Source of the DNA: a virus
IMG/VR virus record: IMGVR_UViG_3300025141_000021
Length of the DNA: 64,000 bases
Strand: one strand, 5' to 3'
Shown here: positions 33,076-57,916 of the stretch, one piece after another
Layout: each line of letters starts with the position of its first letter
Position numbering within the stretch: position 1 is the first letter of the stretch
The notes under the pieces: generated by a model
Databases searched by the model: none
Seen by the model: only the letters and a program-made list of their open reading frames with translations
Told to the model about the DNA's origin: nothing
Position numbers and translations under genes: made by a program

Positions 33076-33323
33076 GTTTTATATTCCCTTGAACGCAAAT
33101 TCTTTTTCTCTTTGCGTATATCTTCCCGGGTTTCTTCAATAAAAGTTTTTATTTTATCACCCGGCTGCGAAGCCGCTGACTGTCTTTTTTTTGTTAATAT
33201 CGCAGGAATTCTATTTAGAGTTTCTGCGCTGCAGTCTTCGCACTTTGTTAAACGTTCGCTCATAGAATGAACGACTTCTAACACACTTTCGCACTCATTA
33301 CACTTATAGGTGTATCGAGGCAT
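33072..33323 (-). CDS. FmdB-family zinc-ribbon protein (83 aa)
   Basis: MPRYTYKCNEC...CEDC matches the MPxYxYxCxxC...CxxC pattern. Confidence 0.85.
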   Translation of the reverse strand: MPRYTYKCNECESVLEVVHSMSERLTKCEDCSAETLNRIPAILTKKRQSAASQPGDKIKTFIEETREDIRKEKKNLRSREYKT

Positions 33324-33325
33324 AA

Positions 33326-33535
33326 TTAGTCTGTAGCTTTCTTGGTTTCTTCCTGCTTGAATTGATTTTTAGGAATTTGCACAATAGGCGGGTTAACGAT
33401 AATTAATTCGTTTTGACTAGGCCCATCTGGCACAAATTCCATTGCCTTCAATACAGGAACAATATCAGACTGTTCCATAAGACTCTTTTGCAGAGCCATC
33501 ATAATAGCACCAAGTGCTTCGTCGCTTAATTTCAT
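33326..33535 (-). CDS. Hypothetical protein (69 aa)
   Basis: ATGA-coupled to gmd; plausible composition. Confidence 0.65.
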
Positions 33536-34512
33536 AATTTTCTCCTTATATCTTTTAAATCGGCGTCATACATCATTTTGGCCAATTCTTCGAAATTAAC
33601 TTTTGGTTCCCAATTAAGCTTTTTTTTGGCTTTGGTTGGATCTCCTAATAAATATGGCACTTCATGCGGGCGAAAAAGCCTTGCATCAATGCTAATATAT
33701 TTATCTGGGCTTCCTAAGCCAGCATAATCAAAAACACATTCTAAAAATTCTTTTACTGTGTAACTCTTGCCAGTGGCGATTACATAATCGTCTGGATTAT
33801 CTTGCTGTAACATTAGCCACATAGCTTCTGTATAGTCTCCAGCAAAACCCCAGTCTCGTCGTGCATCTAGATTTCCCAAATGCAGTTTATCCTGTAACCC
33901 CAACTTAATCCTTGCCGCGGCAATGGTTATTTTCCTTGTGACAAACGTTTCTCCTCGTCTGGGGGATTCGTGATTAAATAATATTCCGCTAGAGGCATGA
34001 AGATTATAACTTTCACGATAGTTTCTTATAAGATTGTGTGCGAACACCTTTGCACAAGCATATGGTGATGCTGGGCAGAAAGGTGTTTCCTCGTTGAATG
34101 GAGGCAGAGGATTATCGCCATACATTTCAGATGACGATGCTTGATAAAATTTAGCCTCCGGGCACATTTGTCTATATGCGTTCAACAATCTAAGAGTTCC
34201 CATGGCTATTGAATCGACAGTTTCTTCGGATACATCAAACGACACTCTCACATGAGACTGTGCCGCGAGATTATATATTTCATCTGGATAATAATTTTTC
34301 AACAATCTCCAAAAACATCCGGCATCGTGTAAATTGCCATATTCAAGCGTGAATCTTGTATCATTAAATATATTATCAATTCTGTCGGTCGTGATAAGAG
34401 AGGTCCTTCTCTTAACTCCAATGACATTATATCCCTTTGATAGTAAAAGTTCTGCAAGATATGAACCATCTTGGCCAGTGACGCCGGTGATTAAAGCAGT
34501 TTTATTTTTCAT
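33532..34512 (-). CDS. gmd: GDP-mannose 4,6-dehydratase
   Basis: [81 protein letters not shown]. Confidence 0.97.
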
Positions 34513-35395
34513 TATACCACCTATAGGTTTTTAAAACACCTTCTGCGAATGATGTGAAATTAAATCCATAAATTAATTCAAGAAGGCGTCGATTGGTTCC
34601 GTCTTTGCGATGTTGTCCTTCAAAGTTTCCGTTAAATTTAAATTTCACATCTTTTCCTGTCTGTTCTCGCAACATTTCGCACATCTGGCGTATTGAGAGG
34701 TTTTCCTCCGGAGCCACGATCAATGGAAGCTCTGAGGTGTGGTTCTCTAATAGTTCTGGAATTATCTGGCACAAATCATCAACATATAATTGTTGTCTCA
34801 GCGGCTTTCCAGTTCCCCACATGTTGATTATATCACCATTTTTTGCTTCGGTTAACTTTCTTATTAGAGAGGGAACGAAGTGCGATGTTTTGTAATTGAA
34901 ATTATCTCCAATGCCGTATACGTTGGAAGGGCAAAAACATGAATAATCTACTCCATATTGTTCTCTATAGGAAAGCGCCTGAACGTGTAGATTGCGCTTG
35001 GTGAATCCATAGGCAAAATTGGTTTTTACCGGAGGGCCCTTAAAAATATCTTCTTCAGTAAAGGGGTATTTTTCAACTTTGTCCGGAAACGCACAAGTGC
35101 TCAATGAAGCCAAAATTCTCCTAACACCAGATCTATACGCGCAGTGAATTAAGTTTGTGTTGATCATCGTGTTGATATAAAAATATTCAGCTTGTTTGCT
35201 GACATTATCAAATATTCCACCCACTCTGCCTGCCAAATGTATCACAGCCTCGGGGCGAAAGTCACTAAACATCTGTCTACATTCTTTTGCAGACGTTAGA
35301 TCATACATATTTGAAGATACATATGTCCAATCTGGCTTGACCAGTTTAAGTCGACTGCCAACGAAGCCGGTACCTCCTGTCACTAAAACTGTCAT
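34502..35395 (-). CDS. fcl: GDP-L-fucose synthase family (GDP-4-keto-6-deoxymannose epimerase/reductase)
   Basis: [55 protein letters not shown]; adjacent to gmd. Confidence 0.85.
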
Positions 35396-36459
35396 CTTCT
35401 TAATGATTTCCGTTCCTGGTATCGCTTAAGATACAAATCAAATAACTCTGGCCAACGCTTTTTAACCGCTTTATCAAAGTCTTCCATCATGTGAAATGAT
35501 TTGTCTTTTCTATGAAACTCCATATCTTTATTATCAACAGTGTTTGTTACATATGCTGAATTATGACCGCCATTCATTCGTCTATATTTTTCCGCGCTTC
35601 TATTTTTATGAAATTCAAATTTATCCATCAATTCGTTTAGTCTCGCAAGACTATGTTCGTTTAGCATGTCCATTGATTTTATCAAGCTCTCAAGCGTTTC
35701 TTTTGGCTTCAGGATTAAGTCTTCATAGTGTACAATAGTTTTATAGCCTTCGTGCTCGTGGTATCTTCTAATTAACGTAATATAACCTCCAGAATTAGCA
35801 TCAAATGCATTCTTCATAGTATCATCTTCGCTAGGGTTAAATTTAAAAGCCTCCATTCTCTCTGCAAGCCCGGGATCATTTCTAATCATAACTTCTTTAT
35901 AGTTTCTAAGTAACAAAATCACTTTTTTATAAGAATGCTTAACTTTGTTCTCTTCATAAAGCCACTCGTGCCGTTTAAGCAATATTGGAGAATTTTTAAT
36001 GTATTCTTTAAAAAATGGAGAATCTATATGACTATGAACTACCGGGATTGCACCTTTATCAAGAAATATTGGTTTTGAAGGTGTCTCAAAGCCTAACATA
36101 TGATAGTCTGGTCCCAATGTTGGTCTTTCTGTTATAAACTCAATGCAATATCGAAGCCATGTACTTCCAGAACGCGGGTAGGACAATAGAAGAAATTCTG
36201 CATCCCCGGGTGAAAAGTTGTCTACCATAATTTTTTTACCAACCAGAAACGCGTCGAGGTCGCGACCCAGTTCTTGTTTCTTTTCCTTGCATGAATGATG
36301 TATCGAATGTAATCTGTGACATAACTGACATCTTACTAAAAATGTTTTACACGGTCGATGTCTTGAGTGTGTCTGATTACACATGTGACATCTTCTCAAT
36401 CTAGTCGCCTTTCTGAATTCTATGACTATCTTCGTCAAAATGTTGAGTTGAAAACTCAA
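35392..36459 (-). CDS. Sulfotransferase-family protein with N-terminal duplicated Cys/His motif
   Basis: PAPS 5'-phosphate loop LLSYPRSGSTWLRY, plus LLRN and VHYEDL. Start is uncertain (ATG 36459, TTG 36399 or ATG 36384). Confidence 0.75.
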   Translation of the reverse strand: MSFQLNILTKIVIEFRKATRLRRCHMCNQTHSRHRPCKTFLVRCQLCHRLHSIHHSCKEKKQELGRDLDAFLVGKKIMVDNFSPGDAEFLLLSYPRSGSTWLRYCIEFITERPTLGPDYHMLGFETPSKPIFLDKGAIPVVHSHIDSPFFKEYIKNSPILLKRHEWLYEENKVKHSYKKVILLLRNYKEVMIRNDPGLAERMEAFKFNPSEDDTMKNAFDANSGGYITLIRRYHEHEGYKTIVHYEDLILKPKETLESLIKSMDMLNEHSLARLNELMDKFEFHKNRSAEKYRRMNGGHNSAYVTNTVDNKDMEFHRKDKSFHMMEDFDKAVKKRWPELFDLYLKRYQERKSLRR

Positions 36460-36757
36460 ATAATTCCGAGGGTTCTAGAGCAATCATCTGATGTCTCAGA
36501 CCTCTATATACATGAAAATTTTGTCCAGGCTCTAAAGTAACTTCTTGAGCTGCTGCGATATTGTCTTCATCAGAGAATTTAACAATCATTTTCCCAGACT
36601 GTAAATAAAAAACCTCATCCTTCAATTTATGGTAATGCCACGAACATCGCTTGCCCTCATTAAAATATAGCAGTTTACCACAATATTCTGGTTTGTTAAC
36701 AATCCAGCGCTCATGACCCCAGCCTTTTTCAACATATTTTATGGGGATTCCTACCAT
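36401..36757 (-). CDS. Cupin, mannose-6-phosphate isomerase / sugar isomerase type (118 aa)
   Basis: KGWGHE, CSWHYHKLKDEVFY and GLRHQM cupin motifs. Confidence 0.8.
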   Translation of the reverse strand: MVGIPIKYVEKGWGHERWIVNKPEYCGKLLYFNEGKRCSWHYHKLKDEVFYLQSGKMIVKFSDEDNIAAAQEVTLEPGQNFHVYRGLRHQMIALEPSELFEFSTQHFDEDSHRIQKGD

Positions 36758-37584
36758 ACTGTCTTTCCGCCATCAATGACCATGTTTTCGCCTGTCATAT
36801 AAGAACTGGCGTCAGAACACAAAAATACTATGGCACCTTTGTATTCATCAAGGCGCGCCATACGATTCATTGGAATAATAGATGATAGTTTCTTTACGAA
36901 CTCTTTTGGGTGGTTATTGTATACACCTGTTGGGCTTAAGCAATTAACTCTGATGTTCTTCTCTGCAAAATAAACTGCCAAGTATTTTGTCATTCCAATT
37001 ATCGCCCACTTAGCGGCCGAATAGGTAATCGGTTTAACGTTCTGCCTGTTTTCAGCAACACCATCTTTACGATATAGTCTTTGGTCGGGCGCAATAACAC
37101 CTAAATCTGATGAAATGTTCAAAATAACGCCACCGCCCTGTTTAAGCATCCTGTTTCCGACTATCTGAGAACAAAAGAACGTTCCATTTAGCGCAGCGTT
37201 GATGCCCTCAAACCAATATTCTGGAGACATAGTTTCAAATCTCGAATCAGGAGTTAGACCGCCACCCTTCTTAACCTTTGGATCCTTTGCGGCATTATTA
37301 ATGAGAATATCAATTTTCTCACAAAACCCGACAACAGTCTTGACTGACAATGGGTCCGCAACATCCATATGAAACGCGGCGGCCGATCCTTTTCCATATT
37401 TGTTATTTAATTCAGCTGCTTTCTCGGAGACCCTGTCTAAATGATGATCTGTTAATATCACCCTGCCTCCATATTCAATTATTGCTGCAGCATGCTGTGG
37501 GCCAAGTAGACCTCCAGCGCCCGTAATTAATGCAGTTCGACCGGTCAGATCGAAAACGTTATTGTTCATAATATATCCTTTCAA
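36751..37584 (-). CDS. SDR oxidoreductase, PtmA-like (277 aa)
   Basis: ITGAGGLLG, LINNAA, YSAAK and IRVNCLSP. Resembles SDRs found in nonulosonate loci. Confidence 0.85.
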   Translation of the reverse strand: MKGYIMNNNVFDLTGRTALITGAGGLLGPQHAAAIIEYGGRVILTDHHLDRVSEKAAELNNKYGKGSAAAFHMDVADPLSVKTVVGFCEKIDILINNAAKDPKVKKGGGLTPDSRFETMSPEYWFEGINAALNGTFFCSQIVGNRMLKQGGGVILNISSDLGVIAPDQRLYRKDGVAENRQNVKPITYSAAKWAIIGMTKYLAVYFAEKNIRVNCLSPTGVYNNHPKEFVKKLSSIIPMNRMARLDEYKGAIVFLCSDASSYMTGENMVIDGGKTVW

Positions 37585-38323
37585 AAATGTCTTTGTGTAA
37601 TAAAATTGTGTTTATCTCGTTACCAGATTTTCCTCTAGCTGTTTGTAGTGTATACACGCCATTATAGCCGTGTGATTTTAAATATTTAAATATCATTTTG
37701 AAGTCTGTATCACCAGATGTTGGAAAGACCGTTTGGGCTTCATGTGTTCTGTCTTTTAAATGTACGTTTCTAATGTATTTCCCTATTTTTGCAATGTATT
37801 CTTCATGATTATAGCCACATGAAGTAATATTTCCAGTGTCATACGTCACATAAAAGTTGTTTGAAAGCTCTAATATTTCTAATAATTTGTCAGCTTCTAG
37901 TTCTGCTTCAAATAGAAATCCTATTGTAGGGAAATTTTCACTCATACTTTGCATTACCTTGCCAAAAGCGTGTCTTTGGTTGTCATCTGACATATCACTT
38001 TCTTCTAGCAAAGGAATGGTAATATATCTAATGTTATTCCTAAGCGCTGCAGTGCAAATTGGTATTAGGTTTCTCTTCAAATATTTTTTATCGTGAATAC
38101 CGGAATCGACCAAATTGTCAGCACATATAGAATGTATCGGATAATCTAAAGCCGATTCAAAAAATATAGGATTTGTTGAAAACGATTTCTTTGTAATAAT
38201 CCATTCAACATGATTAAGATTCATGTTGTCTAATAAATCAAACTCTCTTCTCCAATTTTTTGGACACTCTTGAAAACCTTCGGTTGGTGTCGACAACCTT
38301 CCCTGGATTATTCCGACTTTCAT
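37559..38323 (-). CDS. Sugar-phosphate isomerase/epimerase, xylose-isomerase-like TIM barrel (254 aa)
   Basis: MKVGIIQGRLS, FEAE, YDTGN, VHLKDR and GDTDF metal-binding motifs. Confidence 0.8.
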   Translation of the reverse strand: MKVGIIQGRLSTPTEGFQECPKNWRREFDLLDNMNLNHVEWIITKKSFSTNPIFFESALDYPIHSICADNLVDSGIHDKKYLKRNLIPICTAALRNNIRYITIPLLEESDMSDDNQRHAFGKVMQSMSENFPTIGFLFEAELEADKLLEILELSNNFYVTYDTGNITSCGYNHEEYIAKIGKYIRNVHLKDRTHEAQTVFPTSGDTDFKMIFKYLKSHGYNGVYTLQTARGKSGNEINTILLHKDIFERIYYEQ

Positions 38324-39294
38324 TCTTTATCCTTAAACTCATAAGGTGAAGGCAAATTGCTATTTTTTACGCTCTGTGAGTAGTCTTTTATCTGCTGGGC
38401 GATATCTACGCCCACATTGTCGCTCCAAGCGCTTAGAAGGCCGCTGGTGACCTCTCCTGGGGTACCAGGACCAATGTTCTGGCCATTCAGCTTAGTAACC
38501 GGCAGCAAACAGAAGGGGGTGCCCGTCATAAATGCTTCATCAGCCATCATTACATCGTATGGCTCAATGTTTTTTTCAACACATTCGAGACCAAGCTGTT
38601 CTGAGAGTTCGAATATATATTCTCTGCTTACACCTCTGAGAACGTTTCTTCCTTCTGGTGTTAAAATTCTACCATCTTTGACAATGAAAAAATTATCCCC
38701 GGTTCCCTCGGCAATATAACCATCTGGATCCAGAAGCAAGGCCCAATTATCTTCACCGGCAAATTGAGAAACTTCAATGTTTGCCATAAGGTAGTGAATT
38801 CTACTTCTATTTTTCACTTTCGGTTCTAGCAATTGCGCCGGGATCGCCCGTTGAGAAGGGATTACGGCATTGATACCTTTATCAAATAAATGACCCATCG
38901 ATGATACTGTCCAACGAAGAGGAAAATCAGCGATAATAATGTTTGGGCCCTTGTGCATACCAAGCACTTCCTCATAAAGAGAAAGAGTTCCACGAGACAC
39001 ATCAATCATAATGCGATGTTCATCATCGTCTTGAAAATGGGGATCATTAATCTCAATAGTTTTGTAAACCGCTTCTTCCATTTCATCGATTGTCATTTTG
39101 ATCGGAATACGAACATATTTTATCGATGCGTATAATCGTTCTAAGTGTTCGCGAAGTTTAAACTGTTTTTTGTTAAACGATCTCGTCATTTCAAAAACCA
39201 TATCACCAAACATCAAAGCAGAATCATAGATTGATATCTTTGCTTCGCTCTCTGGCACAAATTCGCCATTAAAGTAAACTAACCTATTACTCAT
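38320..39294 (-). CDS. PLP-dependent aminotransferase class IV (IlvE/Dat-like, 324 aa)
   Basis: VYFNGEFVP..AKISIYDSALMFGDMVFE, HLERL, KNRSRIHY, EGTGDNFF, LRGVSR, EAFMTGT. Confidence 0.9.
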   Translation of the reverse strand: MSNRLVYFNGEFVPESEAKISIYDSALMFGDMVFEMTRSFNKKQFKLREHLERLYASIKYVRIPIKMTIDEMEEAVYKTIEINDPHFQDDDEHRIMIDVSRGTLSLYEEVLGMHKGPNIIIADFPLRWTVSSMGHLFDKGINAVIPSQRAIPAQLLEPKVKNRSRIHYLMANIEVSQFAGEDNWALLLDPDGYIAEGTGDNFFIVKDGRILTPEGRNVLRGVSREYIFELSEQLGLECVEKNIEPYDVMMADEAFMTGTPFCLLPVTKLNGQNIGPGTPGEVTSGLLSAWSDNVGVDIAQQIKDYSQSVKNSNLPSPYEFKDKE

Positions 39295-39965
39295 CCCAAT
39301 TCCTTAAACTTGTATATAAATTCACACATTTTTAAATCATCCATATCGTCGATTTCATGAACTTTCCAATTGTCCATTAAAGAATATCCGATATTGCCGC
39401 CCAGTCTGTTGTTGTATCTGTTTATTGTTCTTGTTCTAAACACATATATTGATCCATTTTCAATCAATTGTCCGCTTAGTTCTTGTCTTCGTTTTCTATT
39501 TTCGAAATTAAAGTTTAAACTTCGAGGAGTTCCTGCCCTGTTGCATGTCCACAAACATAGGTCTTTTGCCTCAACTGCAGAAAAAACTGAATCTAAAGAA
39601 TTGTTGACCAATGTCTCAATCGCATTGTCTATATCTTTTGGTTCTCTTAACGGAGAAGTCGGCTGTAAAAACACAACTGTGTCAATATCGTCGATTTCAT
39701 TAATAGCGTGTAGCAGGGCAGTTTCAGAAGAAGAAATATCTTGTGCTAGTATTTCTGGTCTCAATATTAAATTGGCGCCGTAATCTTTTGCAACGGTTAA
39801 TATTTCTTCATCATCAGAAGATACGTATACTTTATTGCCGTATTCTGATGCTTTTGCTTGTTCTATAGAGTGTGCCAATAGCGGCTTACCTGCAAAATCA
39901 ATGATATTTTTTCTTGGTATGCCCTTGCTTCCGCCGCGGGCTAAAATAACTGTTGCGGTTTTCAT
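39291..39965 (-). CDS. neuA: Acylneuraminate (nonulosonate) cytidylyltransferase
   Basis: ILARGGSKGIPRKNI, FLQPTSPLR, ENGSIY, EIDDMDD. Confidence 0.92.
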   Translation of the reverse strand: MKTATVILARGGSKGIPRKNIIDFAGKPLLAHSIEQAKASEYGNKVYVSSDDEEILTVAKDYGANLILRPEILAQDISSSETALLHAINEIDDIDTVVFLQPTSPLREPKDIDNAIETLVNNSLDSVFSAVEAKDLCLWTCNRAGTPRSLNFNFENRKRRQELSGQLIENGSIYVFRTRTINRYNNRLGGNIGYSLMDNWKVHEIDDMDDLKMCEFIYKFKELG

Positions 39966-41194
39966 TCCAAAAATCGTTTTGCTGCTTCGAATATTTCTTC
40001 ATACGCATTATCTTCAAGATAGAGCTTTGGGCTGAAAGCGTGATGGTACCACGTTGTTTCTTCCGGAGGCATTTGGCCAGTCTGTCTTTTGTGATGATCT
40101 TTCATACCATATGGCCACCATTCCTCATTATATTTATCGGGAACATTGCCCGATAAAAATCTCTCATAACGACCAACACAAGAAGAAGGTCCAAGATCGA
40201 AACAAAATTCATTAAAATTGGTCATAAACTGTTTCTGTTCTGACGAATGTTCGACGAGATCATAAGTTAATGCTTCATATGGGAGGAACTTCCATCTTTT
40301 AAATATTACTGATGTGGTTTCTGCTGGCATCCAATCAACAATCTCGGTTTTTTGTTCTTGATAAAATTCTTCTTTATCCCAGTCAAAATCAACCGGCATT
40401 ACATTACAGCTGGTGACATTACAAAAAACTAAATTTTTCTTCATGGCTGCAGCCATCGGCCAAAAGCCAGCATCACAAGAAATAAACAATTTGCAATTTT
40501 GAATTAAAAACAGATAATCTTCGATTGTCCACCGTGGTTCTCCATCGTCATCAAGATACTTTGACAAATCGATTAAATTTTTGTGTTGATGATCTGCACC
40601 AAATTCGAATCTCGTATATCCGCCAGGAAGAGCTTTTTGTCTTTTATCTCCCAATTTAACAACTTTATATCCCATATTAGCATATGTAAGGGCTAATTTG
40701 TGGAAAGCCTCTGGATCTACAAATCTCTCTTGATCAAACTCGGAACCATCAATTCTCTTCCACCAAGTGCCCTGTTCTCTATGAAATATAAGTATTGCAT
40801 CCTTTGGCAGCTTAAGATGGTTTTCATAATTCTCTTCATCGAATTTTAACGTTATGTCTGGTGCACCGGACAAGCTTGACCACGTGGAAGGATATGCTTC
40901 TCGGCCATTTTCTTGTGTAAAGTCAGGATAAGCATCTGGCATTATAATGTCTTTTATCTCAATCCTCTTTTCATTGTCTTTCGTCTTGGAAGTGAAAAAC
41001 TTAATATTCTCTGGCTCAACGCCAGGTATGCATAAAACAAAAGACCTTTGAAATTCATGCTCAACATAAATTTCAACATTTTTAGGATTTATGTCCTTCC
41101 TAGCTAAATGTTTTGCTAGCGCAATAGTTTGTTCTATTGAATTTCCTATTGAATTTTCATGGCGCCATATTCCAAATTTTAATTTTTTTTCCAA
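39962..41194 (-). CDS. Putative glycosyltransferase (TIGR04372-like, 410 aa)
   Basis: ILIFHRE, GYKVVKLGD and LFLIQNCKLFISCDAGFWPMA resemble GT-B/GT9-like C-terminal motifs; glycan-locus context. Confidence 0.5.
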   Translation of the reverse strand: MEKKLKFGIWRHENSIGNSIEQTIALAKHLARKDINPKNVEIYVEHEFQRSFVLCIPGVEPENIKFFTSKTKDNEKRIEIKDIIMPDAYPDFTQENGREAYPSTWSSLSGAPDITLKFDEENYENHLKLPKDAILIFHREQGTWWKRIDGSEFDQERFVDPEAFHKLALTYANMGYKVVKLGDKRQKALPGGYTRFEFGADHQHKNLIDLSKYLDDDGEPRWTIEDYLFLIQNCKLFISCDAGFWPMAAAMKKNLVFCNVTSCNVMPVDFDWDKEEFYQEQKTEIVDWMPAETTSVIFKRWKFLPYEALTYDLVEHSSEQKQFMTNFNEFCFDLGPSSCVGRYERFLSGNVPDKYNEEWWPYGMKDHHKRQTGQMPPEETTWYHHAFSPKLYLEDNAYEEIFEAAKRFLE

Positions 41195-42620: not shown

Positions 42621-42629
42621 AATATTTTC

Positions 42630-44539: not shown

Positions 44540-44549
44540 AATATTCCCC

Positions 44550-50578: not shown

Positions 50579-51294
50579 TAGGTCTGTATCATATCATCAT
50601 AATTTATACCTTCGCGATGCACATTCCACGTAGCCTGATGTTCGTGCCATCTGTAATGATATCCCAGCCATCTATCACAAGGGTATATAAAGACATCATG
50701 ATCGGCCAATTGACAATATAGATCATAGTCTGCTGCACCACCATATTTTTCTGGATTTGTATTTAGTAAATTATCATCATATAATTTTCTACTGTATATC
50801 ACAGTTGGGGTGTTTACTGGGCACTTTTTAAGTAACAAGGTCTTAAACTCTTCCATTGTTGTATAATAATGTCCAATGTCACCAACTGGTGCTTCTTCAG
50901 CGCCGCGAACTCCCCTAATAGGGCTTTGAAACGTAATTACCTGCTCCGGAGCAGACATTATATATTTCATACAGTTTTCAATATATAAGGGGTGAAGATA
51001 ATCGTCCGCACCCATAACCGTAAAGTAATCGCCATTGGCGTGGTCTAGTCCAACGGCCTTTGGTTCATCCCAGCAGTTTGGGTATATATTTGGTGCGTAA
51101 TCGATTATTAATTCTGGATGTAATTTAAACAGGTCTTTAACAATATCAACGCTTTGGTCTTTGCTTTCATTATCAACAAAAATCACTTCAACATTTGAAT
51201 AGGTTTGCTCTAATGCTGAACGAACACATTTATCAATCCATTTTTCTGCATTATAACATGGTATGATTATCGATACTAATGGATTCACTTCCAA
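50545..51294 (-). CDS. Glycosyltransferase family 2 (249 aa)
   Basis: VSIIIPCYNAEKWI, FVDNESKD, MGADD, ADYDL. Confidence 0.92.
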   Translation of the reverse strand: MEVNPLVSIIIPCYNAEKWIDKCVRSALEQTYSNVEVIFVDNESKDQSVDIVKDLFKLHPELIIDYAPNIYPNCWDEPKAVGLDHANGDYFTVMGADDYLHPLYIENCMKYIMSAPEQVITFQSPIRGVRGAEEAPVGDIGHYYTTMEEFKTLLLKKCPVNTPTVIYSRKLYDDNLLNTNPEKYGGAADYDLYCQLADHDVFIYPCDRWLGYHYRWHEHQATWNVHREGINYDDMIQTYWRERWTINPS

Positions 51295-51581
51295 TCCTCT
51301 GTGTTCATTGCTTTGTCACATATGAATAAATCATAATATGGCTTATTAACTCTTAAGTCGTGATGCTTAACACCCCAATCTGCCAATTGTTTTCGTGTTA
51401 ATTCGTTATAATCGATTTTTGTTATACTTCCCCTGGCAGTCCAATAAATTATTGTATGACCCTCGTCGTACAGCTTATTCGCTTTTTCAATATTTTCTTT
51501 TATCGGCCACGCTAAGTTATATTGTCTTTTTCCAGCTGGATAATGGCAGATTGTTTCATCAATGTCAATATAGATCACCAT
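51285..51581 (-). CDS. Minimal capless HAD-superfamily phosphatase (98 aa)
   Basis: Motif I DIDETI, motif II WTARG, motif III NKP, motif IV FICDK. Confidence 0.8.
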   Translation of the reverse strand: MVIYIDIDETICHYPAGKRQYNLAWPIKENIEKANKLYDEGHTIIYWTARGSITKIDYNELTRKQLADWGVKHHDLRVNKPYYDLFICDKAMNTEDWK

Positions 51582-52480
51582 TTCTCTAACATGCTTTCTG
51601 CTCTAGTAATATATGAATGTCTTTTGCTCACATATTCTCTGTTTTTCTCTTTAATCTCGCTTAAATCCTTGTTTATCCATTCTGCCACTAATTCAAACAT
51701 TTCTTCTGGCGTAGCGGCCGTCGGTACATCGGGAAATAAATTTTCTAACTGTGTTACTTTATCACTTATTAAGAATCCTGTTAAGCCTAGCGATTTGAAC
51801 GTTCTCTCGTTTGTGTCAAACCCCAATTGCCTCTGATATGCGTCGTGTATGTTAATTGCAATTTTGGTATTATAGAGTATTGTGTTTTCTTGCCAATGCG
51901 CTAAATTGTTATTAACAAAGAACCCACAGTTGAGATCACTATCTTTAAATTTTGAGAAGTGATCGACCATTATCTGGTATTTTTCATTAAATCCATTATT
52001 CGCAATTCCTCCGATAAAACATATATCAAACAATATATCATTTGGCATTGGTTTGTAGTTTACGGAATCAAATGCTAATGGTATTGTTTTTACATTTTTC
52101 CATTCATTGTGATATCCCTTTAAATCGCTGAATGTCCATTTGTAGACATTGTCTATTTCATTGAGGTGTTTTCTGGTTTCTGGATTACAAAGGCTTATAA
52201 AATTAGAGTGATTTCCCCAATGTCCCGGGAACAAGGTTGGCTGTACAAATAAATAAGCATTGTTCGCACCTTCTAATATTCGCAATGTTTTCATATTAAC
52301 ATCTGCGTCTGTTGCCATTACATAATAATCGGAGTCCTGGGGGATGGCGCCTAGTTCTCTGTAATACTCAACATCAAATCCTAATTTAGACCATGCAGAC
52401 GCATAACCAGTATATATCCACTTGCCGGCATTATGTAAATGCTCTTTTATATAAATTTTCATTTGAAATAGTCTCCACAA
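51575..52480 (-). CDS. CgeB-like / GT-B glycosyltransferase (301 aa)
   Basis: LAFDS, DICFIG, KIAINIH, NERTFKSLG..GFLISD. Confidence 0.75.
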   Translation of the reverse strand: MWRLFQMKIYIKEHLHNAGKWIYTGYASAWSKLGFDVEYYRELGAIPQDSDYYVMATDADVNMKTLRILEGANNAYLFVQPTLFPGHWGNHSNFISLCNPETRKHLNEIDNVYKWTFSDLKGYHNEWKNVKTIPLAFDSVNYKPMPNDILFDICFIGGIANNGFNEKYQIMVDHFSKFKDSDLNCGFFVNNNLAHWQENTILYNTKIAINIHDAYQRQLGFDTNERTFKSLGLTGFLISDKVTQLENLFPDVPTAATPEEMFELVAEWINKDLSEIKEKNREYVSKRHSYITRAESMLEKW

Positions 52481-53628
52481 TTACAATTGTTTGCAAAAAA
52501 ATCTTTTGTCTCTTTATTAAAAGTGTCAATCCATTTTTTCTCTAGTTTTGCAAAATCTTCTTGTTTCTGTCTTCCAAAATCATCACAATAATGCCAAACT
52601 TTTATCTGTTTTCCCTCTGAGGTAAACAGTTTATTATCATCCACGTAATATTGCTTTATAAAGTCAATATCTTTTTTAGTAGCAATTGAGTTGATTAAAA
52701 TTTCAGCACTATTCTGTTTGGCTAATTCTGTTAATACATTTTCTTGAGATCTGTGAGACCGAACATTATAAATAATGTCTTTATTTGTAATTTCTGGTAT
52801 CGATATTTTTGGTCTTTTCATGTTTTTTGAGAATAAATCTAAATTTACTTCCCCTATATCTTTGTTTTCTAAATCTGGACCATACCCGGCAAATAAACAA
52901 AAATTTAAAGACCCTTGTTCATAATAATTGTTTATAAACCCCATTGGTATTTTATTATCAAATCTTTTATCTAAAACCGTAGTTTGAAAACAAAAATCTA
53001 CTACATGTTTCAGAAGCGTTAAATTATTAAAACAAACAACATCAGCGTTTAAATGTAAAAACTGAAACTTATATGCATCAGGATTTGTTATAATATGTGC
53101 ATGCTGCTGAGCAGTCTCCTGTTTATCGCTATTAATATTTTGATTTATGTCAAAAATATTTTCTAAATATGGATTTGGATTGTAAAGATTATAACCAGCT
53201 GGGTAAGAACTTGCGTCTTTTTCGACAAGAATTGGACTTATATAGGCCGGGGGCCCCGACGGGCGGTTCTTATCTGCGGGAATGAGCAATGGATAATTGA
53301 AATCTAACGTTGCTATAGCATCGCTTTCGTCATCATCAACAAATTCGCTTAAACGAGCACAAGTTATTGTGTCAGCGCCTAGAATTATAACTTTTTCATA
53401 CCCCCCGCAAATAGAAAAATGACAAGCTAAAGAAAATTTAATATATCCATGTGATATTAAACTAGCCATAGGGGCTATAGTGCCGGCAAGATTATTGACA
53501 TAATTATAAAAATTACAAACAAGTGTGTCAATCTCTGGATGAAATTTAATGAAACTGTGTCCAGCATTAAGTGCTAGCTTTTCAAATCTTATATCTGAAT
53601 AATATATTACACAAAGAGTTTTCCTCAT
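52459..53628 (-). CDS. Hypothetical protein, possible GT-A glycosyltransferase (389 aa)
   Basis: IILGADT, LNADV, EQGSLN and VWHY recall GT8-like motifs; glycan-locus context. Confidence 0.4.
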   Translation of the reverse strand: MRKTLCVIYYSDIRFEKLALNAGHSFIKFHPEIDTLVCNFYNYVNNLAGTIAPMASLISHGYIKFSLACHFSICGGYEKVIILGADTITCARLSEFVDDDESDAIATLDFNYPLLIPADKNRPSGPPAYISPILVEKDASSYPAGYNLYNPNPYLENIFDINQNINSDKQETAQQHAHIITNPDAYKFQFLHLNADVVCFNNLTLLKHVVDFCFQTTVLDKRFDNKIPMGFINNYYEQGSLNFCLFAGYGPDLENKDIGEVNLDLFSKNMKRPKISIPEITNKDIIYNVRSHRSQENVLTELAKQNSAEILINSIATKKDIDFIKQYYVDDNKLFTSEGKQIKVWHYCDDFGRQKQEDFAKLEKKWIDTFNKETKDFFANNCNCGDYFK

Positions 53629-54542
53629 GAAGACATAATCTTATTTAGAATAGAGCTTAACCGAATTTTGGATTCATGTTCTCGCATGAATCTCTCATGG
53701 CCGCGAGATGCAATGTCTTGTAACAATTGTTCTCGTTGTAAGAGAAATTTTATTTTTTCAAAAAGTTCAATTGGGCCTTCAAATGTTATTATTTCTTTGT
53801 CTGGGGCGAAAAACTCTTCTATGTCTTCAGTATATTCTGTCATCAAGAGCGTTTTTGCAGCAGGGACCTCAAAAACCCTGGCTTTTATCTGTGTTGAGGA
53901 TTCAATTGCGTTTGTGTTTTTGCTAAAATTTAGGGCTATCTTTGAACTAGAGTGGAGCCAAGTCATATCTTCATGAGCTAGCCCATAAAAATATTCCATA
54001 TTCACACCTTGCTTTTTCAAATAATCAGTATACCACTCCCTATCAGAATTTGGTCGGCCACAAAATGTAACATCAAGATTCTTTTCAGCATGTTGAGGAT
54101 ACAAATCTATGTTTGCGTGCCAGCCTCCTAACAAAATATTGTTATATCCAATGTCCTTGAACTTTTTAATATATCTCTTTTCTGGAGTTGAACATACAGT
54201 AAAATTCGAACATACCTGGCTTGAAAACGTATCAAATCTCCAAGTATCGTCACAAAACCAATTAAACGTTCTGGTTCTTCCAGATTCGGTTTCTTTTATA
54301 ATATCTTCCCACGGTTCGTGAGGAGTTAATCCTGTATCCCCGGTCATACAACAGAAAATTAAATCAGGCTTAATCCGTTCAATAATACTGTTTAAATCTT
54401 TTTCTTCTGGGTCGACCGTATCATAAAAATATACATCATGGTTTAGACTCATAAGAGGAATGTATACGTTCCAATAACCTCCGTCCAGCCGCGGTCGACC
54501 TCCATGAACCAGGGTTTTATTATGTACTAATATTATTTTCAT
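53625..54542 (-). CDS. CgeB-like / GT-B glycosyltransferase (305 aa)
   Basis: NWFCDDTWRF, DVTFCG, KIALNFS, KARVFEVPA..TLLMTE. Confidence 0.8.
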   Translation of the reverse strand: MKIILVHNKTLVHGGRPRLDGGYWNVYIPLMSLNHDVYFYDTVDPEEKDLNSIIERIKPDLIFCCMTGDTGLTPHEPWEDIIKETESGRTRTFNWFCDDTWRFDTFSSQVCSNFTVCSTPEKRYIKKFKDIGYNNILLGGWHANIDLYPQHAEKNLDVTFCGRPNSDREWYTDYLKKQGVNMEYFYGLAHEDMTWLHSSSKIALNFSKNTNAIESSTQIKARVFEVPAAKTLLMTEYTEDIEEFFAPDKEIITFEGPIELFEKIKFLLQREQLLQDIASRGHERFMREHESKIRLSSILNKIMSS

Positions 54543-55387
54543 TATTCAAGCTGGTTTAGTATTGTATTTGGAATTTCTTTACGCTTGTTCTTCATTACTT
54601 CTATAAGAGGCTTTCCCTTTAATTTAAACCATGGTTCGCTAGTGGCGCCAACTAGTTGATTTGTTATAACAGACATGCCGGCCATACGAGCCTCAATAAC
54701 AAGTCTTGACAACGTCTCTGGCGTTTTTGGAAAAAAGACAAGACCCTTATTAGAGCTTAGCTTGTCAAGAAAGCTATGGTAATCTGGAGAACGTATCAAA
54801 TTATATTTAAATTTATTGGCCACGCAATATCTTATTGCTTCTCCTGTATTTTTGTGGGGTATACTCGAATCTAATATTGCAAAACTGTCACTCTTTTCTT
54901 TAGAGGAAAGCTCTTCAAGCTTTTCTAATGCTGCAATACTCCAAATATTTCCACCAAGATTAACTATATTATCAAGTTCCAAATTCTTTTTGACTATTGA
55001 TGCATGAAAAGAGGATTGACAAAATATTGCCTTGGCATTTTTGTAGAAATCCTTATTTATTATCTCTTCCGGAGGAGCATGAAAATATGAGAAATCTGCT
55101 GGATTTCTTGTTGTTAAATATTTATGGTCATGTTCATAAATTGCATATTTGGCTTTTTTTGACAAAATTTCTTTGCACGGCTCATTTAATCCTAAAAAAT
55201 TTGCAATTATATATGTTTTGTCTAAATTGTCAGCTATTACGTCTGGTGTAAGAGCTTGGGAATTGATTTTCGCTATATCATGGTCAGACGCTGCAATGTG
55301 CTGTATGAATTCTTCGTTATTTAATTCGCCGCCGCCTAAAACGCCTTGCTCAACAAAAACGTCCGCTACAAAAATTAATTTCATCAA
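54542..55387 (-). CDS. Putative glycosyltransferase (GT4-like, 281 aa)
   Basis: GGGELN, YEHDHKY, PETLSRLVIEARMAG. Confidence 0.6.
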   Translation of the reverse strand: MMKLIFVADVFVEQGVLGGGELNNEEFIQHIAASDHDIAKINSQALTPDVIADNLDKTYIIANFLGLNEPCKEILSKKAKYAIYEHDHKYLTTRNPADFSYFHAPPEEIINKDFYKNAKAIFCQSSFHASIVKKNLELDNIVNLGGNIWSIAALEKLEELSSKEKSDSFAILDSSIPHKNTGEAIRYCVANKFKYNLIRSPDYHSFLDKLSSNKGLVFFPKTPETLSRLVIEARMAGMSVITNQLVGATSEPWFKLKGKPLIEVMKNKRKEIPNTILNQLE

Positions 55388-56652
55388 TCATGAACCTGCG
55401 CATTCAAACTATTCATCCACTCATCAACATTGAAAACCTCTTCTTTGTGAATTGCATCGGCAAATTGCTTATATTTCTGCTCTGCCGTAAAATTTTCTAA
55501 TATGTGCGCTTGCAAGTTTCTTGCCATTGAGGCAAATCGAGGATATGCCTTAAAAACCTCTCGAAGCCTTGATTTGTAAGATTTTTCATCCGCAAAACAC
55601 CACTTTGAATCTGGTTGTAATACACCGTCCCAATGTGCTTCTGGTTGTATTGGCTGTAAAATATAATCAACTTTTGCAAAAAGCGGCTTTTTCTTGATTT
55701 TCTTTGTTTTCTTATTCCTAATTGGTGCATATAAAAAGTCACATTGGCCACTCCAATTTGGAGAAACTACAGGTACCCCATTATATGCAGCCTCAAATAT
55801 TGGCAAACCAAAGCCTTCTCCGTGGGCCAGGGTTACAAAGGCCTTTACTTGTTTGTGTTTGTATAGGGCTGTCATTTCTTCATCTGACATTGCTCCATGC
55901 AAAACATAAACCTTGCATTTTCTATCAGAATATGGCGCCAATAAATTTCTAACTTGAATCTGGGTTGCTTCGCGGTCCATTGTACAATTATTCGCAGTGT
56001 TCATTTTAAGTATTAAGCCGACTTCGTCATCTTTAAACTCTTCGACAAACCAACGAATTGTATTTTCTACATTTTTTCTGGGGCTCCATTGGGCAACAGC
56101 CAAATAATTGAAATCGTAGTCAAACTTTATATCTAAATCTGCCGGCTCAAAATTCCTAATTGGGTAATTAACGACCTCAACCGGCGTTTGGCACTTGAAT
56201 TCAGGTGTAACTTCTCCAGTTTCATTATTGGTCGCTTCATAGCTTGTATTATCAAATCCATATTTTGCATGCTCGGAAACAACGATAATTTTGTCCATTA
56301 TATTTGATTTTTCTACCCAGACTGGTGCAATCTTTGTTGTTTCAATTCCAGCAGTATAGCCAACGTTATAAGGCGCTAGCGGTTCCCACTCGTTGGGGAT
56401 GGTAATTTGTAACGATATATCAAAAGTGCCCCCTTTGCTGGTGTGTTCTATTGTCTTTGCCAATAAGCTATCTATCCAGCGGCGTTCCTCATTGTCTTCA
56501 TACATCCATCCAGTTTTTCCCCATGGGGTTGCCAATAAATATATGTCAAATCTTTCTTCATGGGCTCTTAAAGAGCGCAATGCAAATCGAGTTTGTTCAC
56601 CATAACCAGAACGCGAAAGCGCGGGGCCTCGTACTATTATTTTCTTTCTCAT
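55384..56652 (-). CDS. Glycosyltransferase family 4 (422 aa)
   Basis: SGYGEQTR, RKN, HGEGFGLPIFEAAYNGVPV..WSGQCDF. Confidence 0.88.
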   Translation of the reverse strand: MRKKIIVRGPALSRSGYGEQTRFALRSLRAHEERFDIYLLATPWGKTGWMYEDNEERRWIDSLLAKTIEHTSKGGTFDISLQITIPNEWEPLAPYNVGYTAGIETTKIAPVWVEKSNIMDKIIVVSEHAKYGFDNTSYEATNNETGEVTPEFKCQTPVEVVNYPIRNFEPADLDIKFDYDFNYLAVAQWSPRKNVENTIRWFVEEFKDDEVGLILKMNTANNCTMDREATQIQVRNLLAPYSDRKCKVYVLHGAMSDEEMTALYKHKQVKAFVTLAHGEGFGLPIFEAAYNGVPVVSPNWSGQCDFLYAPIRNKKTKKIKKKPLFAKVDYILQPIQPEAHWDGVLQPDSKWCFADEKSYKSRLREVFKAYPRFASMARNLQAHILENFTAEQKYKQFADAIHKEEVFNVDEWMNSLNAQVHD

Positions 56653-56653
56653 T

Positions 56654-57916
56654 TTAAGCCTCTTTCAACCGCCAGCCCTTGTAATTTTTTCTATTTTCCC
56701 AAGAACCCCTTTCTTCATGAATTTTTAACATGGTGTTAACCCATGTTTTGCCAAATTCTTCAAAATTATAATTTTTGTTTAAATGTTCTTTGCCTTTCTT
56801 GCCTAGTTCTTTTCGTTCTTCTGGGGTCATGTTGTGTATTTTTAATAAAGCGTCAACAAAGACTTCTTTGGATATTCTATCTTCATAAATGTATGGCACT
56901 TCTTGAGATCCTATTACGGCTTTTGAGGTGGGCTCTATTCCTACCCCAAACCACTCTTTCCCGTCGGTTACTTGTTCCTGTAGTCCGCCAGTCATGTTTA
57001 CAATAACCGGGGTTTCACAAGATAAAGATTCTAACGTCGCAAGGCCGAAACCTTCTGCATCAGAAATATTAACTGTGCAATCAGACATATTGTATAACAT
57101 TGATAAATTTTCCGGTGGTACCTTCTGTTGTGAAAATAAGACCTCTCCGTTAGTTAATCCCAATTCGTTAATGATTGCCTGTAAATCTTGACCATGCTGA
57201 TCTCCGATATCTGTATGCATTATCAATGTTGCTTTGTCTTTCCCGACGATATCCAGAAAATCCTTAAACCACCAAATAACAGAACCACTTTGTTTGCGTC
57301 TAGCATTTCTATTATTCCAGAAAAATACCGTCTTTTCCAAAGAGGCCTCTCCCAAAGTTTCTTTTCTAAATCCAGTGGCATCGTCATCGTCAATCGGCTT
57401 AAATATGTTGGGATTTACAGCATGAGGAATATATTTACATTCTATGTCTGGCGCTACGGTTGTCACAATGTCATAAGTAACTTTTGATATTGTTGCGATA
57501 AAATCGTTTGAATCATAGAATTTCTTGTTAAACATTGGATATGGGTAATTGTCCCATACATGATAATAAACCATTGGCATTAGCGGACGAATTTCATCCT
57601 CAATTTGCCACAACCATCCCCAAAACCTAGGATCGGTCATAAACCAAAGAATGTCTGGTCGTTCTGTGCGAATAAGTGACCGGACCGAATCGTGGTTACC
57701 ATATCCATCAATGGGAAATATAATCCAATCGTCGCCATATTCTTCAGTTTTAACTGGATTATAATCTTGGTGGGTTATTGCTCCGCCAAAACTTATTACT
57801 TTAAATTTTCCACTTTTCAATAACGCCTCAATAATATATTTAGATTGAGTTCCAACACCAGATGGTGAGAGCGGATGATCACTTAATGTGAATATTTTTA
57901 TTTTTTTTTCTGTCAT
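56654..57916 (-). CDS. Glycosyltransferase family 4 (420 aa)
   Basis: SGVGTQ, NRNARRK, AEGFGLATLESLSCETPVI..TGGLQEQV. Confidence 0.9.
   Translation of the reverse strand: MTEKKIKIFTLSDHPLSPSGVGTQSKYIIEALLKSGKFKVISFGGAITHQDYNPVKTEEYGDDWIIFPIDGYGNHDSVRSLIRTERPDILWFMTDPRFWGWLWQIEDEIRPLMPMVYYHVWDNYPYPMFNKKFYDSNDFIATISKVTYDIVTTVAPDIECKYIPHAVNPNIFKPIDDDDATGFRKETLGEASLEKTVFFWNNRNARRKQSGSVIWWFKDFLDIVGKDKATLIMHTDIGDQHGQDLQAIINELGLTNGEVLFSQQKVPPENLSMLYNMSDCTVNISDAEGFGLATLESLSCETPVIVNMTGGLQEQVTDGKEWFGVGIEPTSKAVIGSQEVPYIYEDRISKEVFVDALLKIHNMTPEERKELGKKGKEHLNKNYNFEEFGKTWVNTMLKIHEERGSWENRKNYKGWRLKEA

Follow-up and report, generated by a model that had tools for sequence, protein, structure and literature searches.

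The region at positions 33,532-57,916 of the window (the whole 64,000-nt stretch analysed), derived from an uncultured marine T4-like phage of ~190 kb, is with a probability of about 0.9 one allele of a hypervariable glycan-biosynthesis locus located at a fixed place in the genomes of a very abundant marine T4-like clade. Related phages carry other sets of such genes at this place, following two conserved glycosyltransferases (GTs), which points to a variable glycan made inside the cell.

Genomic location and integrity of the island

The island consists of 28 contiguous ORFs of at least 98 aa, all on the minus strand, as are all features given below, which overlap or abut each other in an unbroken array (ORF listing); the earlier note was right about contiguity and common orientation but had counted 26 genes. 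The upstream border is formed by a PD-(D/E)XK nuclease gene (57925..58686; PF12705, E 4.5e-18; PHROG exonuclease). The downstream anchor (32040..33535), kept in genomes G001-G005, includes a 69-aa ORF occupying an apparent 208-nt gap after the GDP-mannose 4,6-dehydratase (Gmd) gene, an FmdB zinc ribbon protein, a 113-aa single-TM protein and a late-sigma-like gene (32040-32771; PHROG 234, E 8.5e-5) followed downstream by baseplate genes, which agrees with the previously noted position of the island upstream of the late sigma and virion genes. Two perfect sigma-70 consensus promoters lie within the island, one just upstream of the E1 gene (48740..48768; 12/12 match with TG) and the other at 53503..53531, and three such sites were found in the window against 0.05 expected. 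Judging from the sequence only, these strong host-type promoters suggest early transcription.

The GC content of the island is 36-38% compared to 45-47% in the structural genes, as might result from a bacterial O-antigen locus being fused to phage DNA during assembly. The likelihood of such an artefact is negligible: the early region upstream of the island is equally low in GC, the strand and the tight gene packing run on over both island borders, the architecture recurs in 160 loci, in five complete genomes and in two cultured phages, and the GT4a and Maf-like proteins of the window are encoded on 11-13 contigs, the longest of which has 191,895 bp. A misassembled bacterial locus is ruled out by synteny in the relatives.

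The slot in related phages

The same slot, extending from the PD-(D/E)XK nuclease to the late sigma gene and containing glycan genes, was seen in five near-complete relatives (92-100% complete) and 160 IMG/VR loci. The islands of the five genomes are 12.9-24.3 kb long, and the present one is 25.2 kb. Conservation is confined to the pair of GT4 genes at the nuclease end; the other 1,534 ORFs form 351 clusters, 181 of them singletons, and the remainder of the slot is thus a pool of ~350 families swapped as cassettes. One of these, composed of genes for a GT2 enzyme, a ThDP pair, an SDR, E1 and a dehydratase, recurs in different islands, the GT2 and TPP pair being found together in loci L224, L240, L206 and L134. 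Conservation drops away from the anchor in the order GT4a, GT4b, the 281-aa protein and the CgeB-like GT, which is the pattern expected of inner-to-outer assembly.

The nuclease-GT4-GT4 order is also present in the nearest cultured relatives (~30-35% identity), Flavobacterium phage immuto and Microcystis phage Mel-JY01, the nuclease adjoining GT4a in both of them as well as in the closer relatives. The same neighbourhood of GT4a and nuclease is found in phages of Flavobacterium and Microcystis, plus a 484-kb uncultured phage, and in Rhodothermus phage RM378 a GT4a homologue adjoins an exonuclease-like gene.

Glycosyltransferases at the conserved end

GT4a (56654..57916; PF00534), a retaining GT-B glycosyltransferase, is the most conserved island gene, being present in 75 of the 80 nuclease-anchored loci and in thousands of metagenome clusters, the best 120 of which share 65-71% identity with it, so its conservation exceeds that of the baseplate wedge (~50%). 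A further Pfam match is to the GT4-conflict family PF20706. The AF2 model (pLDDT 89.7) matches sucrose-phosphate synthase, chlorovirus B736L, MshA and BshA with VIA Z-scores of about 35, and sequence matches include BshA and B736L (E 8e-6). The structural tie with B736L (Z 35.1) speaks for a virion acceptor, and the small soluble acceptors used by the closest solved neighbours except B736L speak against it. GT4b (55384..56652; PF00534), found in 73 of the 80 loci, is a distant paralogue of GT4a (22% identity over 165 aa).

These are followed by a semi-conserved, virus-only 281-aa protein (54542..55387; 27 of 80 loci; Atlas structure rows TM 0.90-0.98) with no match in the Pfam search, whose fold recurs fused to GT2/GT1 domains; a CgeB/YkvP-like glycosyltransferase (Glyco_trans_1_2; 53625..54542; PF13524, 86 bits); a 389-aa protein (52459..53628) with a weak GT-A (GT8/Nucleotid_trans) lead and no Pfam match, represented in virus-only clusters (Atlas features 0.95-0.96); and a second CgeB-like glycosyltransferase (51575..52480; PF13524, 43.6 bits). 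The CgeB domain of spore-crust glycosylation in two of the transferases is another observation in favour of a virion acceptor. A 98-aa protein (51285..51581), recurrent in islands (37-39 loci), gives a faint HAD-phosphatase lead (TIGR01689, E 0.009; PF25109, E 0.045).

The transferases number seven to nine, namely two GT4, two CgeB-like, one GT2, one TIGR04372/GT9-like and one Maf-like enzyme, with the 281-aa and 389-aa proteins as the remaining two candidates; the earlier note had given about 8-9.

Sugar-donor pathways and finishing enzymes

Each of the enzyme functions previously named was borne out at the family level with Pfam and NCBIfam. Curated cut-offs are exceeded by Gmd (33532..34512; TIGR01472, 454 bits, cut-off 415) and the E1-type NDP-4-keto-6-deoxyhexose 3-dehydrase RfbH/DdhC (47286..48635; NF011936, 478 bits, cut-off 423). 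Several other proteins are clear family members below equivalog cut-offs: the Fcl-like epimerase/reductase, RmlB-like 4,6-dehydratase, NeuB, PseF-like cytidylyltransferase, MptE/Maf-like protein, both transketolase halves, radical SAM enzyme and sulfotransferase.

At this level of assignment, the soluble enzymes would make unusual donors from host GDP-mannose, NDP-glucose, PEP, CTP and probably PAPS. The first, a GDP-6-deoxyhexose, could be produced by Gmd and the Fcl-like GDP-4-keto-6-deoxyhexose epimerase/reductase (34502..35395; NF047922, 179 bits, below cut-off). The second, a 3,6-dideoxyhexose, may be made by the NDP-hexose 4,6-dehydratase (46336..47286; TIGR01181, 290 bits, cut-off 365), E1, which aligns end to end with Yersinia E1 3bcx (E 7e-107) and retains the Cys cluster and the PAHH motif, an NDP-sugar SDR reductase/epimerase (48619..49461; PF01370, 87 bits) and the split ThDP pair, represented by transketolase-like pyrimidine-binding (49458..49934; PF02779, 53 bits) and ThDP-binding (49931..50578; PF00456; NF004559, 96 bits) halves, a two-carbon branch possibly being added. 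The recurring cassette begins with the GT2 gene (50545..51294; PF00535, 93 bits). The third donor, a CMP-nonulosonate, would require the short-form NeuB-family synthase (44550..45377; PF03102, 245 bits; PDB 6ncs, E 3e-42; TIGR03569, 262 bits, below cut-off), which lacks the C-terminal SAF domain, and the PseF/NeuA-like CMP-sugar cytidylyltransferase (39291..39965; PF02348, 95 bits; TIGR03584, 137 bits, below cut-off).

A stand-alone Maf/GT42-type CMP-nonulosonate transferase domain (45374..46342; PF01973, 46.7 bits; AF2 pLDDT 93) resembles residues 258-509 of Maf 5mu5 (VIA Z 14.1), as well as MptE (12.2) and Cst-I/Cst-II (12.1). As only the catalytic domain is present and the glycan-acting GT42 sialyltransferases score nearly equal, this protein gives no indication of a protein acceptor.

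The other genes code for a short RmlD-like SDR (43850..44539; PF04321, 74 bits), a radical SAM enzyme (42630..43853; PF04055, 73 bits; weak PDB matches to SkfB and BlsE), a 146-aa protein (42180..42620; ORF listing) with no family match and no homologue among the sampled loci, an NDP-sugar epimerase/dehydratase SDR (41179..42183; PF01370, 158 bits), a 410-aa putative glycosyltransferase (39962..41194; TIGR04372, 32 bits, cut-off 45; PF01075, E 0.028), a class IV (IlvE-like) aminotransferase (38320..39294; PF01063, 154 bits), a xylose-isomerase-like TIM-barrel isomerase/epimerase (37559..38323; PF01261, 38.8 bits), a classical SDR oxidoreductase (36751..37584; PF13561, 134 bits), a cupin recurrent in islands (36401..36757; PF07883; 30-37 loci, identity up to 78%) and a sulfotransferase (35392..36459; PF00685, 28.7 bits, cut-off 22) with a homologue in huge phage LR756508. 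Neither a nucleotidyltransferase supplying GDP-mannose or NDP-glucose nor an E3 reductase to partner E1 is encoded in the island, which therefore draws on host precursors and is not the self-contained system it was taken for.

Absence of membrane components

No matches to Wzx, Wzy, ABC-transporter or phosphoglycosyltransferase families were found in the island (Pfam/NCBIfam), and none of its proteins has more than one hydrophobic segment or is an integral membrane protein. Proteins with at least three hydrophobic helices are absent from the islands of the five complete relatives and from the 1,534 ORFs of the relatives' loci (160 edge segments). The lack of export, polymerase and initiating-transferase genes reported earlier thus extends to about 1,500 ORFs in relatives. 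The use of a host carrier and exporter is compatible with these missing proteins since GTs acting on undecaprenyl intermediates are also soluble or peripheral.

Putative target of the glycan

A virion protein is the best of several readings for the acceptor, although its chances are put slightly short of even. Assembly would take place in the cytoplasm and start with the two conserved GT4 enzymes priming a conserved acceptor encoded by the phage; semi-conserved transferases would then extend the glycan, whose acidic outer part would be completed by variable transferases together with the Maf/GT42-like enzyme and the sulfotransferase. With a virion protein as the acceptor, the product would coat the particle surface, and glycan diversity might result from selection on this exposed structure. 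A phage-borne acceptor is suggested by GT4a being kept across phages whose hosts have unrelated envelopes. No Ser/Thr-rich acceptor tract was found in the virion proteins of the window, the capsid gene being located outside it.

A somewhat improbable alternative is host-envelope remodelling, in which phage donors and peripheral transferases act on host lipid-linked O-antigen, capsule or glycoprotein intermediates and the host initiating transferase, flippase and polymerase carry the product out, so that the altered surface blocks superinfection or stops progeny from sticking to debris. This has been proposed for the P-SSM2, cyanomyophage and pelagimyophage clusters (PMC1079782, PMC7824862, PMC7029224), and the reading of similar islands in print as host O-chain modification speaks against a virion target. 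The island shares its enzyme families with O-antigen loci, the early sigma-70 promoters are compatible with action before lysis, and hypervariability is equally expected of a structure that competing phages see. Nevertheless, the two primer transferases are conserved among phages infecting hosts of three phyla, whose envelopes are unrelated; flippase, polymerase, ligase and initiating transferase genes, which in bacteria accompany O-antigen cassettes, number zero among the ~1,500 sampled ORFs; and a strictly lytic phage would be investing 13-25 kb for a gain confined to one latent period.

It is unlikely that metabolism or defence is rewired through a soluble or lipid-anchored glycoconjugate, such as a small-metabolite glycoside or a decoy, or through glycosylation of non-virion phage or host proteins. 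The top solved neighbours of GT4a, sucrose-phosphate synthase, MshA and BshA (Z 34-35), act on small soluble acceptors, and the BshA sequence match and PF20706 are further points for this reading, but Z gaps of 4-5 between GT4 members define no acceptor. Moreover, seven to nine transferases including a capping nonulosonate transferase, together with a sulfotransferase, imply an oligosaccharide rather than a simple glycoside, and hypervariability at the locus level is typical of exposed structures.

DNA hypermodification, with mono- or oligosaccharides put on modified bases as in T4, RB69 and MT/TET-linked clusters, would fit the nuclease-adjacent position of the island in the early region, and LPS-enzyme-related phage GTs are known to put sugar chains as long as trisaccharides on DNA (bioRxiv 10.1101/2023.12.21.572611; PMC13326640). 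However, in DNA of immuto, which has the same nuclease-GT4-GT4 island, LC-UV-MS revealed canonical dA, dC and dT and fdPreQ1 in place of dG, with no sugar adduct (PMC10516641). In the five complete relatives, searches for a ThyA-family hydroxymethylase/hydroxylase, TGT/DpdA and Tet_JBP gave no match, the one for TET being run without a positive control, and no DNA methyltransferase or TET domain was found in the island (Pfam). DNA glycosylation is therefore highly improbable, given the immuto result and the lack of ThyA-family enzymes in the relatives. Immuto, from which this evidence derives, is only 30-35% identical, which is a limitation of the case for the virion reading.

Comparison with known systems

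This kind of system is already known: reports of large "LPS-like" clusters in marine T4-like phages go back to 2005, and the island is not the undescribed system once proposed. These clusters of up to 24 sugar and glycosyltransferase genes, read as host-surface modification (PMC1079782, PMC7029224, PMC7824862), are likewise polymorphic, combine NDP-sugar enzymes with GTs in lytic myophages and differ in content among close relatives, and their role is putative. Unlike the present island in its nuclease-late sigma slot, they are located in the tail-fibre host recognition cluster; the present phage belongs to a different clade, with immuto and Mel-JY01 as its nearest cultured members, and its island has the fixed two-GT4 anchor, the nonulosonate/Maf-like branch, the E1 and ThDP branch and the sulfotransferase. 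The steady absence of membrane components was checked here, and those papers contain no report of it.

According to PMC12619734 (citing Freeman et al. 2023), mycobacteriophages decorate capsid and tail-tube proteins with their own cytoplasmic GTs, which is the only proven phage precedent for virion glycosylation; there, one or two transferases, no sugar-nucleotide pathways and known acceptor tails are described, compared to 28 genes and a putative acceptor here.

Flagellin islands with Maf similarly have a NeuB-type synthase, a cytidylyltransferase and an MptE/Maf-fold transferase side by side, and the catalytic domain of Magnetospirillum Maf (PDB 5mu5) is the best structural match (Z 14.1). 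However, at 322 aa compared to 632 aa the phage protein has no counterpart of the N- and C-terminal domains of Maf, GT42 sialyltransferases reach Z 12.1, and the phage island has no PseB/C/H/G, LegB/C/H/G or flagellin genes. With the O-antigen CDP-3,6-dideoxyhexose (ddh/rfb) loci it shares E1 above the cut-off with the Fe-S cysteines kept, the 4,6-dehydratase, which is nearer RmlB than DdhB, and cassette hypervariability, but not the DdhA nucleotidyltransferase, E3 reductase or Wzx/Wzy/WbaP.

Chloroviruses and giant viruses build capsid glycans with soluble sugar-nucleotide enzymes (including Gmd) and GTs, without host ER or lipid carriers. GT4a resembles B736L of chlorovirus PBCV NY-2A (PDB 3oy2) over 369 residues, although the hosts of these viruses are eukaryotic, the role of B736L is putative and other GT4 enzymes tie with it. 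The Bacillus subtilis spore crust (cge/sps; PMC13577073) also carries a cytoplasmically made nonulosonic-acid glycan on a protein shell, assembled with CgeB-type GTs and SpsE/NeuB; the CgeB domain occurs in two island proteins and the island NeuB matches SpsE 1vli, though the crust belongs to a bacterial developmental system and the likeness is in logic and domain families, not orthology. What is new in the present locus is the conserved anchor, the mix of pathways and the argument for a phage-borne acceptor.

Genomic context

The window is a single long minus-strand phage gene array. Upstream of the island (33532-57916, minus strand) are genes coding for a PD-(D/E)XK nuclease and PhoH and some small genes; downstream come the late sigma gene (gp55-like), the baseplate genes (gp6-like and gp25-like) and the genes of two giant proteins and of a 1,026-aa protein in which a lysin/peptidase domain was recognized. 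The gp6-/gp25-like baseplate PHROGs, the late-sigma-like gene and PhoH represent the backbone of a T4-like myophage. The giant proteins, 3,986 aa (4107-16067, minus strand) and 2,584 aa (19929-27683, minus strand) in length, are encoded on either side of the baseplate genes; the former is widespread (74 sampled loci) and the latter has few homologues (8 sampled loci). The 1,026-aa protein (28675-31755, minus strand), whose gene lies a short way downstream of late sigma, may be a tail-associated lysin; its residues 714-880 form an endolysin/peptidase-like domain (PHROG 894), and it occurs in just 3 of the sampled loci.

A megablast search of GenBank phages with the island and the first 25 kb returned no match at the DNA level, so the phage is known solely from metagenomes, where the window's own proteins are encoded on contigs as long as 191,895 bp. 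The nearest cultured phages by protein are Flavobacterium phage vB_FspM_immuto (hereafter immuto) and Microcystis phage Mel-JY01, with identities of about 30-35%. Genome-wide gene checks were made on five relative genomes of 168-203 kb with a completeness rating of 92-100%, in place of the window's own genome.

An earlier note on this DNA had raised the possibility of a bacterial locus joined to phage DNA by misassembly. Such an artefact was excluded because the synteny of the slot recurs across the relatives, and the island's low GC content is also found in the upstream early region, which leaves this explanation a negligible probability. Two GC regimes are seen across the window (1-64000): most of the structural genes (4-12 kb and 20-32 kb) are at 45-47%, the island and early region at 36-39%.

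Three perfect sigma-70 promoter sequences (TTGACA-N17-TATAAT) are located at 62586-62614, 53503-53531 and 48740-48768, all on the coding (minus) strand, with 0.05 expected in the window, and the latter two lie inside the island. Judging by their match to the consensus, they probably serve as strong early phage promoters, which suggests early transcription of the island by the host RNA polymerase. The T4 late-promoter motif TATAAATA occurs at 12 sites, none of them ahead of island genes, and the motif ACTAATTAT at 2 sites vs 1.2 expected; neither is informative as to timing.

Gene content of the island

The island was previously described as 26 contiguous genes; the contiguity is correct, and the number is 28 abutting or overlapping ORFs. 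A previously unlisted 69-aa ORF (33326-33535, minus strand) fills the apparent gap between the Gmd and zinc-ribbon genes, with 72-74 aa ORFs at the same place in two of the relative genomes (G001 and G004). All the enzyme functions named before are backed by Pfam and NCBIfam: Gmd and E1 (NDP-4-keto-6-deoxyhexose 3-dehydrase, RfbH/DdhC) pass curated equivalog cut-offs, and assignment is to the family only for the Fcl-like reductase, RmlB-like dehydratase, NeuB, PseF-like cytidylyltransferase, the two transketolase halves, the radical SAM enzyme and the sulfotransferase. NeuB is short and has no SAF domain. Family support as glycosyltransferases was obtained for seven island proteins, two unknowns of 281 aa and 389 aa being leads only.

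E1 scores 478 bits on NF011936 (cut-off 423) and can be aligned over its full length with the Yersinia enzyme (3bcx, E 7e-107); both its cysteine cluster and the active-site motif PAHH are retained. The 3,6-dideoxyhexose branch thus shares with the CDP-3,6-dideoxyhexose pathway a 3-dehydrase with putative Fe-S cluster cysteines, whereas the DdhA cytidylyltransferase, DdhB and E3 (the reductase partner of E1) of that pathway were not found in the island, which contains neither a glucose-1-phosphate nucleotidyltransferase nor a ferredoxin-reductase-type protein. The island dehydratase fits the dTDP model (290 bits) better than the CDP model (78 bits). The suggestion that the system is self-contained does not hold, as a nucleotidyltransferase that would supply GDP-mannose or NDP-glucose is missing from the island, as is the E3 partner of E1, and precursors and reductants must come from the host.

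The Maf-like protein matches PF01973 (the MptE/Maf catalytic domain) with 46.7 bits against a cut-off of 34.6. As a PDB sequence search with this protein gave no match, its structure was predicted (pLDDT 93). The best VIA match of the model is the Maf central catalytic domain (Z 14.1), with 198 residues aligned to residues 258-509 of 5mu5 at an rmsd of 3.7, in the central domain only; MptE (Z 12.2) and the GT42 sialyltransferases Cst-I/Cst-II (Z 12.1) score within 2 of Maf. The protein is 322 aa long, its approximately 180 metagenomic relatives being put at about 290-320 aa or, more widely, 280-350 aa, and the N- and C-terminal domains that flank the catalytic domain in Maf, a protein of about 600 aa, are missing. 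By size and by this central-domain alignment, the predicted model is that of a stand-alone CMP-nonulosonate transferase domain, which has the catalytic domain in common with Maf-type flagellin glycosylation but not the terminal domains. Taken alone, it is no argument for a protein acceptor, since Cst-I/Cst-II take glycan acceptors.

The reported absence of Wzx, Wzy, ABC and initiating transferase functions was borne out, none being matched among the island families. There is no PF02397 or PF00953 match in the island, and each of its proteins has at most one hydrophobic segment. A multi-TM initiating phosphoglycosyl transferase of the WbaP/WecA type was found neither in the island nor among 1,534 ORFs of the relatives, not one of which has three or more predicted helices, and the search for a flippase, ABC transporter, polymerase or ligase in the island and the relatives yielded no Pfam or NCBIfam match and no multi-TM ORF.

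The slot in related genomes

Eighty nuclease-anchored and 80 sigma-anchored loci were fetched from IMG/VR. The synteny survey proposed earlier shows that the slot is syntenic in related genomes while the content of the cluster differs. The distance from nuclease to sigma gene is 12.9-24.3 kb in the five near-complete genomes vs 25.2 kb in the window; the sigma gene is not reached in any of the 62 nuclease-anchored loci that extend at least 9 kb downstream. At the nuclease end, conservation is limited to two GT4 glycosyltransferase genes, GT4a (56654-57916; 75 of 80 loci) and GT4b (55384-56652; 73 of 80), and the sigma end keeps a zinc-ribbon protein and one with a single helix. The genes in between fall into 351 clusters including 181 singletons, and most genes lack a counterpart when complete islands are compared. 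Conservation decreases away from the anchor in the order GT4a, GT4b, the 281-aa protein and the first CgeB-like transferase. A cassette consisting of GT2, the split transketolase-like ThDP pair, an SDR, E1 and a dehydratase recurs. NeuB is present in 25 of the 160 segments and nearly missing from GenBank phages apart from LR756508.1 (3 records).

The annotation of immuto contains the order nuclease, GT4a, GT4b, variable genes, with 13 glyco genes, and Mel-JY01 has the same order. LR756508.1, a 484-kb uncultured "huge phage" (region 296000-340000), shares the nuclease-GT4a order with the window, followed by homologues of the sulfotransferase, Fcl, Gmd, NeuB and the 98-aa protein within about 23 kb. 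A GT4a homologue also occurs in Rhodothermus phage RM378, with no annotated sugar-pathway genes in the fetched region; GT4b was undetected there by tblastn, so GT4a alone is demonstrated in this phage. Public metagenomes contain thousands of GT4a clusters (built at 90% identity), and the best 120 of these share 65-71% identity with it, so that GT4a is better conserved than the baseplate wedge; the clade ranks with the most abundant myophages of the ocean. When the GT4a fold was compared with viral models, the matches were generic viral GT4s only.

In G003 (L246:2030-4054) and G005 (L249:2054-3997), GT4b is extended at the C-terminus by about 250 aa and reaches 647-674 aa; fusion with the 281-aa protein was considered and has no BLAST support. 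The moraphage lineage, described in PMC12619734 as having four core glycosyltransferase groups, was also considered, and a link to this clade was not established.

Putative target of the glycan

Several indirect observations point to a phage-borne acceptor, namely the conservation of the priming enzymes across phages of Bacteroidota and Cyanobacteria, with GT4a also in the Rhodothermus phage, the lack of membrane steps throughout, the conservation gradient and the tie of GT4a with chlorovirus B736L (Z 35.1). The virion is accordingly favored as the target, if at slightly less than even odds. Against it count the solubility of transferases acting on lipid-linked acceptors, which would suit modification of the host envelope, the less likely target, and the equal likeness of GT4a to enzymes whose acceptors are small and soluble (Z 34-35), which would suit some other conjugate, considered less likely still. 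Nor was an acceptor-like tract found: Ser/Thr-rich tracts are absent from the eight virion proteins of the window, the capsid gene lying outside it.

DNA as the target is highly improbable. Glycosylated DNA is known to arise by way of either a ThyA homologue or a methyltransferase with TET, and the island has neither a ThyA homologue nor a C5-methyltransferase with TET. PF00303 (ThyA) was matched in none of the five complete relatives, the control genomes being matched, and TGT/DpdA is absent from all five; PF12851 (Tet_JBP) was likewise matched in none, a search run without a positive control that counts for little. The nucleosides of immuto, as determined by LC-UV-MS, carry no sugar: dA, dC and dT are canonical and dG is replaced by fdPreQ1 (PMC10516641). 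Since all dG in immuto is 7-(formylamino)methyl-7-deazaguanine (PMC10516641) and the five marine relatives have no TGT/DpdA, DNA modification differs inside the wider group.

The slot may be regarded, with a probability of roughly one in three, as a phage "serotype locus" for a cassette-diversified virion-surface glycan. The two GT4 enzymes would prime the glycan on a structural protein, assembly would be wholly cytoplasmic with no lipid carrier or exporter, and cassette exchange among at least about 350 gene families would diversify the product with acidic nonulosonates, branched 3,6-dideoxy sugars and sulfate. If true, this would be a viral counterpart to O-antigen diversity and would answer a twenty-year-old question on the purpose of "LPS genes" in marine T4-like phages, whose sugar-gene clusters have been noted since 2005 and routinely labeled "LPS" or auxiliary metabolic genes, never being put to the test. 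The fixed place, the two-enzyme anchor, the lack of membrane machinery among about 1,500 genes and the sugar-free DNA of immuto make the question directly testable. Hypervariable, acidic, possibly sulfated glycans on virions would bear on adsorption, particle stickiness, grazing and decay at sea, and glycan-coated virions would imply a large reservoir of soluble rare-sugar enzymes.

Comparison with known systems

This kind of system is already known from the 24 "LPS" genes of P-SSM2 (PMC1079782), from the polymorphic glycosyltransferase clusters of cyanophages and pelagimyophages, read as host-surface modification (PMC7824862, PMC7029224), and from mycobacteriophages, whose virion glycosylation is proven according to work cited in PMC12619734. 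Wzx/Wzy- or ABC-dependent O-antigen and capsule loci likewise combine NDP-sugar modification genes with several glycosyltransferases and vary between strains, but their initiating transferase, flippase or transporter, and polymerase or ligase were not found here. In the mycobacteriophage type the glycans sit on capsid and tail proteins. The polymorphic clusters of marine T4-like phages share both the backbone and the syntenic variation in content; new with respect to all of these are the clade, the fixed slot with its two-GT4 anchor, the mix of pathways, the consistent lack of membrane machinery and a testable argument as to the target.
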